Source: Escherichia coli
GTDB taxonomy: Bacteria > Pseudomonadota > Gammaproteobacteria > Enterobacterales > Enterobacteriaceae
Direction: 5' to 3' (one strand)
Assembly (NCBI RefSeq): GCF_003334355.1
Contig: NZ_QOWP01000054.1
DNA: 11,358 nt
In this document: one piece after another, positions 1,973-3,616 of the stretch
How positions within the stretch are numbered: position 1 is the first letter of the stretch
Layout: every line of letters begins with the position of its first letter
The notes under the pieces: model-generated
Told to the model about the DNA's origin: nothing
The model's database searches: none
Seen by the model: the letters and a program-made list of their open reading frames with translations, nothing else
Program-made: the position numbers and the translations under genes

Positions 1973-1980
1973 ATGATTGC

Positions 1981-1999
1981 TGTAATGATAATTATTTTC
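1981..1999. promoter_or_regulatory. Candidate Fur box upstream of the receptor pseudogene
   Basis: TGTAATGATAATTATTTTC matches the 19-bp Fur consensus GATAATGATAATCATTATC at 15 of 19 positions (counted by hand). It lies 36-54 bp upstream of the ATG at 1945. Confidence 0.5.
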
Positions 2000-2150
2000 A
2001 TTTATGTTCTCATATATCTATAATTATTGTCATCTTCATAAATTGTAAATATCAAACATTTTTGACCTTAATCATGTTTTTTGATAGATATTTTACGACT
2101 GAACATATCCGTCGTTTCCTCTGACTCGTGTCAGTCGGTCTCTGGTTGTA

Positions 2151-2191
2151 TCCACGGACCGCACTCTTGACATAAGAGTGCGGTCCGTGGA
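2151..2191. repeat. Perfect inverted repeat (18-bp arms, 5-nt spacer)
   Basis: TCCACGGACCGCACTCTT gacat AAGAGTGCGGTCCGTGGA. The arms are exact reverse complements and no T-tract follows on either strand. Confidence 0.9.
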
Positions 2192-3616
2192 AAACGGAGT
2201 TGAAAAAATGGTGTCTGAAAGAAGGTACCATCATTGTGATGACAAATACTTTGGCGTGGATAATGTAATTAATTGCTGAAATTGACCGTATATGCGGTAA
2301 GACTCATATCAGTATCAGGTCCGGTTAATTGCTGATACTAATATAAACTTTTTACAAAAGGATGAATGCAGAAGGTTACTCTAATGGCCAGAGTGATGAC
2401 AATGATGGTCAGACGTTGACCTGCAGAAACTGCATTTTAATTGGTCTATAAAGTCTGCAAGAGGAATCAGGGTCAGATCAGTGAGTCTTATCGCGGCCCG
2501 AAGCTATGACTGAAAGAAGGCTGGATACAGAATTGCAACAATTTGGCAATGTCAGAACACAGAAGCTTTGCAAGCAGGTGAAAGGTTATGTCTAGCAAAA
2601 GGAGTATATCAGAATATATCTACTGATGTACAAAACACAACAATAGCTTCATGATATATAAATACGTGATGACGAGTGGTACTCCGCATGGTTATTTAAC
2701 TTCTCAGCACCACTAATGATCCTGAGCAACTTCGTATTTGGGCCATTACCATGGAGTAGAAAGCTGTGTCTGAGAATGCAGAATTTGAGAAAAGAATTCG
2801 CTTTCTTGGAGAGCTTCTGAAAATGGCACGCTAACAACGTTTTGTTAAAAAATGTGAATCACTTGCCGGGGCTGCATTTTCTATTCGAGGAGAATGTTGA
2901 CGTAGATATTACAGAAATCTCAGCGCATCAGGATAAACTGCTACCTTAGGTCAACCACCAAAAGAAAATACAATACGTCCAGTTTGTATGCCTTTAATAA
3001 CACATCTTCTAAATGTTGAAGAATTATCCCGCCTGCTGAAGAACGTTGCTCTGAGTGTGATAAACCTTTTTATTCTTGATGATGTCAGCGAGAAGATGGA
3101 ATATATCCCCGACTGGGTCGTGGTTACCCGGTTAAACATCTGGTGGCGCTAATAAATCTGGCAAGTCACATTCTGTTGAATGCTGTGACAGTGCCTTACC
3201 GAGAGAGCGAAATTGTGGTGTTCTAGTGCATAGTCGCCACCATTCCGGATAATTCTATTGCGTTGTTTTACAAGTTCTTTTACAGCGCAGATCTGTCGCT
3301 GACGTTGAATCAATAGCCTGGATTTCAGAACACAATGCCCGTTTGCTGGTTGGTCCGGCAGTAGCATTAATTCATTATCTGAATGAAATGTGTCAATCCA
3401 CAGAAACCGCTGTCAATGCCGCATTTTGTCGGACGTTAACACGAGAAAGTCTGGCTATTCCGTAATGCCATCTTATTTCGTAATGGATTGAGAATGCTGG
3501 ATTTTTAATTATATTACGCGCAGTATTAATCGCGTAAATGTTTTGCGGTCAGCAACGGTGGGGGAGCCATTGTTCTGTTCAATGAATACCATCATACATT
3601 TGAATCAGGTGTCGGT

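Follow-up and report, generated by a model that had tools for sequence, protein, structure and literature searches.

The window analysed here, a stretch of 11,358 nucleotides of Escherichia coli contig NZ_QOWP01000054.1, includes a 1.6-kb AT-rich segment (positions 1973–3616) between a receptor pseudogene and cobU, and the question raised by this locus is where such ORF-poor DNA came from and whether it hides any gene or signal. The segment is very probably a non-coding 'graveyard' of dead IS fragments and the tail of a CbiG_N-like ORF, located at the cobU edge of a CP4-44-type island. Every stretch of the 1.6 kb was assigned to a source, almost base by base. From left to right the layout consists of a receptor promoter region with Fur-box-like sites, the 3' part of an IS110 element, the tnpB'/tnpC' part of an IS66 element, an internal piece of an IS4 element, the CbiG_N tail and the cobUST promoter. 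The segment is ordinary and already known in K-12 in the form of annotated pseudogenes.

Composition and genomic position of the segment

The GC content of the segment was 0.400, compared with 0.516 in cobUST (3617–5993) and 0.479 in the whole window, so the drop relative to cobUST described in the first-pass annotation was borne out; the minimum, 0.29, was found at 1946–2150. The absence of plus-strand ORFs of 60 codons or more, also claimed earlier, holds for ORFs lying wholly within 1973–3616, with the caveat that a plus-strand ORF of 75 aa (1897..2124) crosses the left edge. The plus-strand frames inside the segment included those of 54 aa (2988..3152) and 40 aa (3343..3465), and the minus-strand ORFs were, as previously listed, of 60, 62, 62 and 72 aa. 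The longest stop-free stretch was 87 aa, against 88 ± 18 aa in 500 shuffles. The DNA thus behaves as non-coding, and the scarcity of ORFs is exactly what the base composition of the segment predicts.

No Rfam family, riboswitch and sRNA included, was detected in 1850–3700 at the gathering threshold or at E ≤ 1; the Rfam matches in the whole window were three tRNA-Asn genes outside the segment and a meaningless match of a miRNA model to the palindrome described below. Among 50,697 phage records there was no genuine homology to the segment, and the sole match, an UNVERIFIED record named 'Campylobacter phage B14', turned out to be K-12 DNA.

The segment was 100% identical to E. coli PSS-12. Identity to K-12 was 99.9% (1640–3226) and 99.0% (3223–3700) apart from insertions of IS2 and IS5: K-12 carries IS5H (at 3223–3226) and, within the receptor gene, IS2, both of which are absent from the window strain. 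The K-12 pseudogenes yoeH (b4641), yoeG (b4640) and yeeH (b4639), situated at the cobU-side end of the cryptic prophage CP4-44, correspond one-to-one in their coordinates with the window. With these pseudogenes at the CP4-44 edge and with the homology breakpoints, both halves of the earlier reading, an 'island boundary or gene-decay scar' at a CP4-44-type edge, proved right. The annotated end of CP4-44 corresponds to ~3361, about 40 bp from the homology-based edge at ~3321, and homology to island-free strains restarts at 3321 in the pdu+ strains and at 3429 in the AW1.7-type strains. Neither phage homology nor an integrase or att sites mark the edge, which is made up of one deletion junction after another. 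CP4-44 has no integrase (Wang et al. 2010).

In pdu+ E. coli, E. albertii, E. marmotae and a further Escherichia lineage the same slot is occupied by pduF–pocR–144/145-aa ORF–cobU, and in E. coli ETEC1734 a riboswitch is annotated between pocR and the ORF. Because pdu-positive Escherichia hold pdu, pocR, a B12 riboswitch, the CbiG_N ORF and cobUST here, the edge is a true island boundary, and the locus documents a CP4-44-type island exactly at the place of the pdu operon in other Escherichia. The island or its precursor would have displaced the pdu operon together with pocR, the B12 riboswitch and, from the CbiG_N-like ORF, its 5' part. At the island's other end K-12 YoeF and AW1.7 have a pduV remnant in common. 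Literature searches for cobUST/pdu remnants found nothing specific. Nearly all (99.7%) of 5,426 complete genomes matched the query 1400–3700, the weakest matches covering only the cobU-proximal end, and the presence of 2060–2600 was variable, at about 51–68% of the same genomes. Further IS insertions recur in the segment, namely IS5 at 3223–3226, ISEc8 at 3348–3355 and IS3-family elements at ~2124 and 2158.

The left end (1946..2133, minus strand; GC content 0.29) is the upstream and promoter region of yoeA, a TonB-dependent receptor gene that runs leftward from position 1945 according to PGAP. The gene is a truncated pseudogene in the window (1445–1945) and intact, 715 aa long, in other strains; strains 144 and ATCC 25922 have an intact receptor and the same upstream DNA. 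A cluster of Fur-box-like sequences, predicted by consensus scoring, was located at 1981–2037, with 15/19 consensus matches at 1981 and 14/19 at 1987 and 2019, the best in the whole window. RNAP and H-NS sites from in-vitro SELEX map to the yoeH–insD3 spacer of K-12 (PMC3946193). We infer that Fur and H-NS may control this left part of the segment.

The insertion sequence remnants and their decay

The homologies of the three truncated IS remnants and the boundaries of these homologies were directly observed, as were the lesions and the compositional skew. The first remnant (2134..2331, plus strand, corresponding to K-12 yoeH at 2161–2319) is the C-terminal fragment, approximately aa 276–340 of 340, of an IS110-family transposase. 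With the intact transposase of L006, itself matching NF033542 at E 1.5e-99, tblastn gave 48% identity over aa 284–337 (E 2e-8), a stretch including two in-frame stops in 54 codons. Among all plasmids the tblastn matches of the fragment were annotated IS110-family transposases (E 5e-6 to 6e-4), and one alignment extends to query residue 2, equivalent to window position ~2134. A plasmid match, H116, was considered as a marker of the natural left boundary, but it is uninformative since its homology ends at an IS3 insertion.

The non-coding right end of the same IS110-type element follows at 2332..2572 (plus strand), with 67.7% identity to L006 3501–3796 and 71% to a pINV copy. In a three-way alignment the two other IS110 copies run on to '...GCGTTCATA', while the window copy passes into IS66 tnpB. 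The window copy stops ~20 bp short of the right terminus and the junction with IS66 is a deletion junction, for which reason an origin by two separate site-specific insertions of IS110 into IS66 was dropped as an explanation. There was also slight evidence in the right end for conservation of an RNA fold. The remnant shares with the IS110 family, which is RNA-guided, the IS1111-like layout of a C-terminal transposase part followed by a non-coding right end of ~240 bp, and a 1427-bp element carried by pRHB15-C23_2 is its homologue. Unlike an intact element it cannot move or be guided, as the DEDD catalytic domain, the left end and an intact right terminus are all absent.

The second remnant, of the IS66 family (2573..3131, plus strand; K-12 yoeG at 2688–3220), includes the last ~83 nt of tnpB, the intergenic stretch and codons 1–151 of tnpC, colinear with L005 and in the canonical order. 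Homology extends upstream to 83 nt before the tnpB stop and ends at TnpC residue 151, short of the DDE domain, whose first residue in intact TnpC is 178. The tnpC fragment retains the LZ domain and two thirds of the zinc finger, and it has five in-frame stops in 148 codons and zero frameshifts. Intact plasmid IS66 elements were 71% identical in blastn (E 1e-71 to 1e-76), and TnpC aa 1–151 of L005 gave 47% identity in tblastn (E 2e-22). The comparison with the pESBL3171-IncF copy and ISEc8-type elements concerns the tnpB 3' and tnpC 5' ends, which are in frame at the same 71% DNA identity; unlike these elements, the remnant represents ~560 bp of a ~2.5-kb element, with tnpA, the DDE domain and the terminal repeats absent. 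Pfam and NCBIfam HMMs recognised neither the IS66 fragment nor the conceptual translation of the IS110 fragment, and both assignments therefore rest on pairwise alignments.

The third remnant (3125..3312, plus strand) is an internal fragment, approximately aa 186–250 of 440, of an IS4-family transposase; it is a PGAP pseudogene, and K-12 yeeH corresponds to 3227–3313. It matched NCBIfam NF033592 at positions 135–191 of 332 (E 1e-4), a score under the curated cut-off, which a mere fragment would be expected to give, and the intact 440-aa IS4-family ORF in L011 matched the same model at E 1e-74. In tblastn the fragment had 72% amino acid identity to many plasmids, and DNA identity over 3125–3312 was 78.7%. 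The 440-aa ORF on pEC404/03-1 (72% amino acid and 79% DNA identity over residues ~186–250) is intact, while the window piece comprises 188 internal bp with one in-frame stop and with Tyr in place of the second catalytic Asp ('ITLFDKLFYS' to 'IALFYKFFYS'), and neither an intact DDE triad nor the element ends are present in it.

All three remnants lie on the plus strand, and the junctions between them are all deletion junctions, none of them an intact IS end; the order of the events that produced them is our inference. The remnants are presumably functionless and would have been drifting under the AT-biased mutation pressure of E. coli, which would have created the stop codons and reduced GC from ~0.50–0.57 to ~0.40–0.45.

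This explanation of the AT-richness agrees with the substitutions. In the IS66 piece 85–90 of the differences from intact relatives were G/C>A/T and 28–29 A/T>G/C in the window copy, and in the IS4 piece the numbers were 28 and 5; the direction is taken from present-day relatives of 71–79% identity and not from a reconstructed ancestor, so the GC difference could be partly ancestral. With differences skewed to A/T, much of the AT-richness looks like mutational decay. The alternative, that the DNA came from a low-GC donor and is silenced by H-NS, is the strongest of those considered but still rather unlikely. It would suit the position of the segment inside a horizontally acquired CP4-44-type island, the fact that the most AT-rich part, 1946–2150, is the receptor promoter with no IS remnant, and the H-NS site in that spacer (PMC3946193). 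It fits poorly with the GC content of 0.50–0.57 in the IS66 and IS4 relatives, with the 3- to 6-fold skew to A/T in the window copies, and with the core-derived tail and cobU leader (3321–3616), which likewise have a GC content of merely 0.41–0.43. The description of the segment as 'horizontally acquired-looking' DNA was right as to its island location, but decay, and not a foreign signature, probably accounts for most of the AT-richness in the IS fragments.

In-vitro binding of RNAP has been reported within the decayed DNA, at sites preceding yoeG and yoeH (PMC3946193); some transcription may therefore occur, and this counts against the graveyard reading. We consider it unlikely that parts of the segment or its replacement history are other than inert. 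They could be so in three ways: the replacement by the island possibly ended the B12-riboswitch/PocR-linked control of cobUST, leaving a proximal promoter that stands alone; the 145-aa CbiG_N-like ORF is possibly, beyond being the source of a fossil, an Escherichia-specific accessory gene of cobinamide salvage in pdu+ strains; and a perfect palindrome within the IS110 fragment possibly acts as a structural barrier or fragile site.

The palindrome (2151..2191) has 18-bp arms (2151–2168 and 2174–2191) and a 5-nt loop, with a DNA fold of -26.3 kcal/mol (z = -10.2 against shuffles). Intact relatives have a palindrome at these codons too, but an imperfect one, and the best explanation for the perfect copy is that a native quasi-palindrome was 'corrected', template switching accounting for its origin without any function. 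Simple neutral decay would not predict such perfection. That it, and perhaps further parts of the decayed DNA, was co-opted as a transcriptional insulator or terminator that separates the receptor promoter from rightward transcription, or as a recombination or replication-pause site, is decidedly improbable. Its extreme stability (z = -10) and its perfection amid decayed DNA in both phylogroups A and B2, with an unchanged copy in ATCC 25922 (B2), would agree with such a role, but the strains compared diverge by ~1%, so less than one change would be expected over the 36 arm bases in any case, and the quasi-palindrome of the intact relatives already explains the origin. A T-run follows the palindrome on neither strand, and its left half has been lost in some strains via an adjoining IS3-family element. 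It also had 0 matches in 100,044 species-representative genomes, as did a 28-mer spanning the IS66/IS4 junction, and no less-decayed or non-E. coli copy was found among these genomes; as the E. coli representative evidently does not carry the segment, the zero matches for junction and palindrome say little about age.

The CbiG-like tail and the cobU upstream region

On the core side of the island edge, 3321..3483 (plus strand) represents the last ~61 codons of a CbiG-N-terminal-like ORF whose parent has 144/145 aa. PGAP labels 3322–3465 as 'cobalamin biosynthesis protein, missing N-terminus'. The ETEC1734 ORF had 74% amino acid identity to the tail in tblastn (E 4e-24), and the DNA was 93.6% identical from 3321 on. 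The tail is disabled in three ways: the 5' 85 codons are gone, 9 nt have been deleted and a Gln codon has become a stop. Positions 1–118 of the 145-aa parent matched positions 1–125 of the 351 in the CbiG profile NF004463 (E 1.6e-19), with 70 bits against a CbiG cut-off of 546, so the parent is not a full-length CbiG (cobalt-precorrin-5A hydrolase) of ~350 aa with both the N- and the C-terminal domain. NCBIfam gave nothing useful for the 57-aa tail.

In Salmonella the cbi genes lie upstream of cobU, and the CbiP gene directly abuts it. A cbiP-type remnant had been expected beside cobU from this order, but the one found is CbiG-N-terminal-like: CbiP/CobQ (cobyric acid synthase) models matched neither the remnant nor the parent ORF at E ≤ 1, and a cbiA–cbiP deletion fusion or a cbiP tail was rejected because the parent matches the CbiG profile. 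The parent resembles CbiG in this match, and the cbi genes of the Salmonella cbi–cobUST operon in its location upstream of cobU, but differs in being a short ORF that stands alone and that was seen in Escherichia and Shigella only. Its dN/dS in pdu+ Escherichia was 0.3–0.4, indicating weak constraint.

The native upstream region of cobU (3484..3616, plus strand) includes a sigma-70 promoter, predicted by a promoter scan as TTGAGA-16-TATATT at 3488–3515, and a 7-bp inverted repeat (3514–3520/3531–3537). RNAP SELEX-chip lists identical hexamers as the constitutive promoter of cobUST (PMC3946193). After the replacement by the island, cobUST would have been driven by this proximal promoter of its own. 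A five-way alignment showed the cobU upstream region to be near-invariant, also in E. marmotae and the further Escherichia lineage. This high conservation of the leader, its inverted repeat and the cobalamin riboswitch annotated upstream of the CbiG_N-like ORF in pdu+ strains might point to a concealed cis-regulatory RNA for cobUST, such as a degenerate cobalamin riboswitch, but that is very improbable: the pdu+ riboswitch lies upstream of 3321, where homology to the window starts, and 1850–3700 was empty in Rfam at both thresholds.

The 54-aa frame and the annotation of the segment

The 54-aa frame (2988..3152, plus strand) had been singled out as a protein-like candidate small gene. It is instead codons ~101–151 of the dead IS66 TnpC, an accidental run from ATG to stop that takes in a few codons of the IS4 fragment. 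Its sequence was quoted correctly and equals the 'hypothetical protein' WP_001128468.1 annotated on the identical RefSeq record; the frame aligns as 'FILDDVSEKMEYIPDWVVVTR' against 'FIRNEVSEKMEYIPAQVVVNR', with the CPEC of the zinc finger lost. The earlier remark that it has no convincing Shine-Dalgarno was borne out by reading the sequence before the ATG, where there is none.

That the frame is a real small protein gene, born from or surviving in the dead transposase, is the least probable of the alternatives: it does have an ATG and a protein-like look, a PGAP CDS in some genomes, its exact 54-aa sequence on at least 1000 contigs and a SELEX RNAP site upstream of K-12 yoeG (PMC3946193), but it is in frame and colinear with TnpC behind four in-frame stops within the same homology, has lost the zinc-finger cysteines, starts at an ATG with no Shine-Dalgarno and matches no family, NCBIfam included, while the sole A-versus-B2 difference within it gives no power to test constraint and its annotation is inconsistent among near-identical genomes. 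Where PGAP annotates the frame it does so as hypothetical, and public sources label the protein only 'hypothetical' or 'uncharacterized'.

The segment carries little weight for biology at large. It offers a textbook case, at an island/core junction, of decay biased towards AT, of truncated IS elements nested in one another and of a corrected quasi-palindrome, in which a tempting 54-aa frame is a transposase fossil. Three annotations can be corrected: yoeG is the N-terminal fragment of an IS66 TnpC and no integrase, yoeH is the C-terminal fragment of an IS110-family transposase, and the stub labelled 'cobalamin biosynthesis protein' is like CbiG_N and does not come from CbiP.

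Composition and coding content of the segment

The AT-rich DNA between the receptor pseudogene (yoeA in K-12) and cobU (1973-3616) is an already annotated, non-functional graveyard of IS and pseudogene remnants at an island/core junction, with a functional promoter region on either flank, for the receptor on one side and for cobUST on the other. The observation made in the first-pass annotation was confirmed, and its proposal of an island boundary or a gene-decay scar is supported with corrections. The GC content was 0.400 at 1973-3616 compared with 0.516 across cobUST, the lowest value (0.29) being found at 1946-2150. 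No plus-strand ORF of at least 60 codons lies wholly within the segment, and the minus-strand ORFs are 60-72 aa long, both as listed earlier. Across all frames, the longest run without a stop was 87 aa, equal to that of shuffled sequence (88 +/- 18), and in its coding content the segment resembles non-coding DNA. The 75-aa plus-strand ATG ORF at 1897-2124, which overlaps the left edge of the segment in AT-rich promoter DNA, antisense to the receptor start, is almost certainly spurious.

The window is E. coli chromosome. Its region 1400-3700 had 100% identity to E. coli PSS-12 and 99.7-99.9% to derivatives of K-12, and 5,407 of the 5,426 complete genomes matched at least part of it. The weakest matches spanned the cobU-proximal end only (3321/3429-3700). 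The gene order begins with the truncated TonB-dependent receptor (1445-1945, minus strand), and directly to the right of the segment lies cobU (3617-4162), followed by cobS, cobT, ldtA, tRNA-Asn, nac, cbl, tRNA-Asn, a 547-aa ORF, which we take to be yeeO from the K-12 gene order, and tRNA-Asn. The three tRNA genes (7049-7121 and 9457-9529 on the minus strand, 11278-11350 on the plus strand) share the same Rfam scores, aligned sequences and GUU anticodon; between them lie nac-cbl and the 547-aa ORF, and their orientations are opposed.

In the record with identical sequence, PGAP annotates a hypothetical protein (2988-3152) and two pseudogenes, one at 3125-3313 named 'IS4 family transposase' and one at 3322-3465 named 'cobalamin biosynthesis protein, missing N-terminus'. 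When mapped from the curated MG1655 record, the pseudogenes yoeH, yoeG and yeeH fell at 2161-2319, 2688-3220 and 3227-3313, respectively, the IS5H insertion at 3223-3226, the IS2 in the receptor gene at a 5-bp duplication (1640-1644), and the end of the cryptic prophage CP4-44 at about 3361. The first-pass annotation was thus right to place yoeG, yoeH and the CP4-44 edge here.

Insertion sequence remnants and their decay

The leftmost remnant found by tblastn was the C-terminal part (about 60 codons) of an IS110-family transposase (2134/2158-2319; E 2e-8 against a reference with the intact gene). Searched against all plasmids, the piece matched annotated IS110-family transposases (tblastn, E 5e-6 to 6e-4), and the reference protein matched NF033542 with E 1.5e-99. 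The non-coding right end of the element (2332-2572) was 68-71% identical to two other copies. It lacks the terminal ~20 bp and adjoins the IS66 tnpB, and the join is therefore a deletion junction. The right end, orphaned from any transposase, shares conserved blocks with the other two (L006, the transposase reference, 3543-3813; L012 3005-3288), and RNAalifold predicted from these three sequences a long-range fold with seven compensated pairs. Guide RNAs are known for the IS110-type family, and the predicted fold fits them.

The dead IS110-type gene also contains a perfect palindrome with an 18-bp stem (2151-2168 and 2174-2191; -26.3 kcal/mol as DNA, z = -10). In intact relatives the same codons form an imperfect palindrome with the outer arms TTATCCATGG and CCATGGATAA; the right arm in the window is close to this native sequence and is matched by a left arm that complements it exactly. 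The simplest reading of the arms is that template switching 'corrected' a quasi-palindrome, which is a known mutational mechanism, and that the result was tolerated because the host gene is dead. On neither strand does the stem lead into a T-run, and so it is not an intrinsic terminator.

The IS66-family fragment (2573-3131) consists of the last 83 nt of tnpB, a spacer and tnpC codons 1-151, with 71% DNA identity to intact plasmid-borne elements. Its tnpC piece (47% identity, E 2e-22 in tblastn) has five in-frame stops and no frameshifts. Intact TnpC has its LZ domain at residues 40-112, its zinc finger at 119-163 and its DDE domain at 178-459, and by this alignment no catalytic part is left. 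K-12 yoeG corresponds to the same N-terminal TnpC fragment and is not an integrase. The 54-aa frame (2988-3152), earlier regarded as protein-like, aligned to intact TnpC as 'FILDDVSEKMEYIPDWVVVTR' vs 'FIRNEVSEKMEYIPAQVVVNR' with the CPEC cysteines gone; it is, by alignment, residues ~101-151 of the dead tnpC.

The plasmid pEC404/03-1 carries an intact 440-aa IS4-family transposase, of which the IS4-type fragment (3125-3312) covers residues ~186-250 (72% amino acid and 79% DNA identity; E 1e-4 for the fragment against NF033592). The fragment contains one stop, and Tyr replaces the second catalytic Asp.

If intact relatives stand in for the ancestor, the direction of change can be read from the differences: 85-90 differing sites in the IS66 remnant were G/C in the relatives and A/T in the window, with 28-29 in the reverse direction (GC 0.40 in the window, 0.50 in intact elements). 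The corresponding counts for IS4 were 28 and 5 (GC 0.45 and 0.57). On this proxy the skew is what AT-biased mutation without constraint leaves behind. The segment had been described as horizontally acquired in appearance: the island edge holds, and the foreign-looking composition thus looks to be largely the product of decay. In the promoter part (GC 0.29) the AT-richness has its usual causes.

The interval 2060-2600 was at least partially present in 3,663 of the 5,426 genomes, with at least 80% coverage in 2,748. Between the phylogroup-A-like window and the B2 strain ATCC 25922, the segment had ~1.2% differing sites and cobU with cobS 1.1%, and the heavy decay is therefore older than the split of these lineages. 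The segment is a tolerated landing pad for IS elements: further hits include IS5 (4-bp duplication, 3223-3226) and ISEc8 (8-bp duplication, 3348-3355), and IS3-family elements occur in other strains at ~2124 and 2158. These, together with the IS2 at 1640-1644, are independent secondary insertions or IS-bounded deletions of other strains, with target duplications (IS2 5 bp, IS5 4 bp, ISEc8 8 bp) sized as expected where both sides were visible.

The island boundary and the CbiG_N-like remnant

Homology to island-less genomes begins again at 3321 when these are pdu+ strains and at 3429 when they are of the AW1.7 type; the latter lack the 108 bp (3321-3428) retained in island-bearing genomes. The layout pduA<- pduF pocR -> 144/145-aa ORF -> cobU was found in pdu+ E. 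coli, E. albertii, E. marmotae and a further Escherichia lineage. In AW1.7-type strains (AW1.7, L003 7831-8007) a pduV remnant is joined straight to window position 3429, and the C-terminal half of K-12 YoeF (yoeF, L013 4076-4432), at the far end of CP4-44, is the same remnant. The shared remnant and the pdu+ layouts therefore place the CP4-44-type island in the exact slot of pdu, pocR, riboswitch and 5' CbiG_N; we infer the order of events at this slot. CP4-44 lacks an integrase (Wang et al. 2010). The search for phage homology returned nothing phage-like, the sole 'phage' match being a mislabelled K-12 fragment. This record, MG065683.1 ('UNVERIFIED: Campylobacter phage B14, complete genome', 2.5 kb), was over positions 1-1482 (L021) 99.7% identical to K-12 yoeG and IS5H, by which it is a mislabelled or contaminant entry.

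The window holds only the dead tail of the CbiG_N-like ORF (3321-3483). This tail corresponds to the final 61 codons of the 145 in an ORF upstream of cobU in the pdu+ strain ETEC1734 (93.6% DNA, 74% amino acid identity), with 85 codons gone, a 9-nt deletion and a Gln-to-stop change. Residues 1-118 of the parent ORF aligned with positions 1-125, the N-terminal part, of the CbiG profile (E 1.6e-19), which ruled out CbiP as the identity of the remnant. In pdu+ Escherichia the stand-alone ORF (144/145 aa) is located between pocR and cobU (ETEC1734, L004 7735-8172; L014, L016 and L017, 6001-6435); in ETEC1734 a cobalamin riboswitch is annotated between pocR and the ORF. The ORF was found in Escherichia and Shigella only, and four divergent lineages carry it as an open frame. 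Its dN/dS was 0.30-0.42 compared with 0.02-0.20 for pocR, pduF, cobS and cobU. The ORF is either a gene under weak constraint, as may be the case, or a fossil in slow decay.

Flanking promoter regions

On the receptor side, the upstream region (1946-2133) also occurs in strain 144 and in ATCC 25922, ahead of a receptor gene that is intact there (715 aa). The best Fur-consensus matches of the entire window cluster at 1981-2037, and genomic SELEX placed an H-NS site in the matching K-12 spacer (PMC3946193).

On the other side, the native cobU upstream region (3484-3616) is near-invariant across Escherichia and includes TTGAGA-16-TATATT at 3488-3515, the hexamers of the constitutive cobUST promoter in the same study (PMC3946193). 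A 7-bp inverted repeat (TTACGCG ... CGCGTAA, 3514-3520 and 3531-3537) overlaps the -10 hexamer and the cobUST start region; invariant in the compared E. coli and partly kept in other Escherichia, it could be an operator. The cobU ribosome-binding region (3606-3616) reads CAGGTGTCGGTATG in the window vs CAGGAGTCGGTATG in ATCC 25922, pdu+ and AW1.7 strains, and with this difference at position 3610 the Shine-Dalgarno sequence may be weaker in the window lineage.
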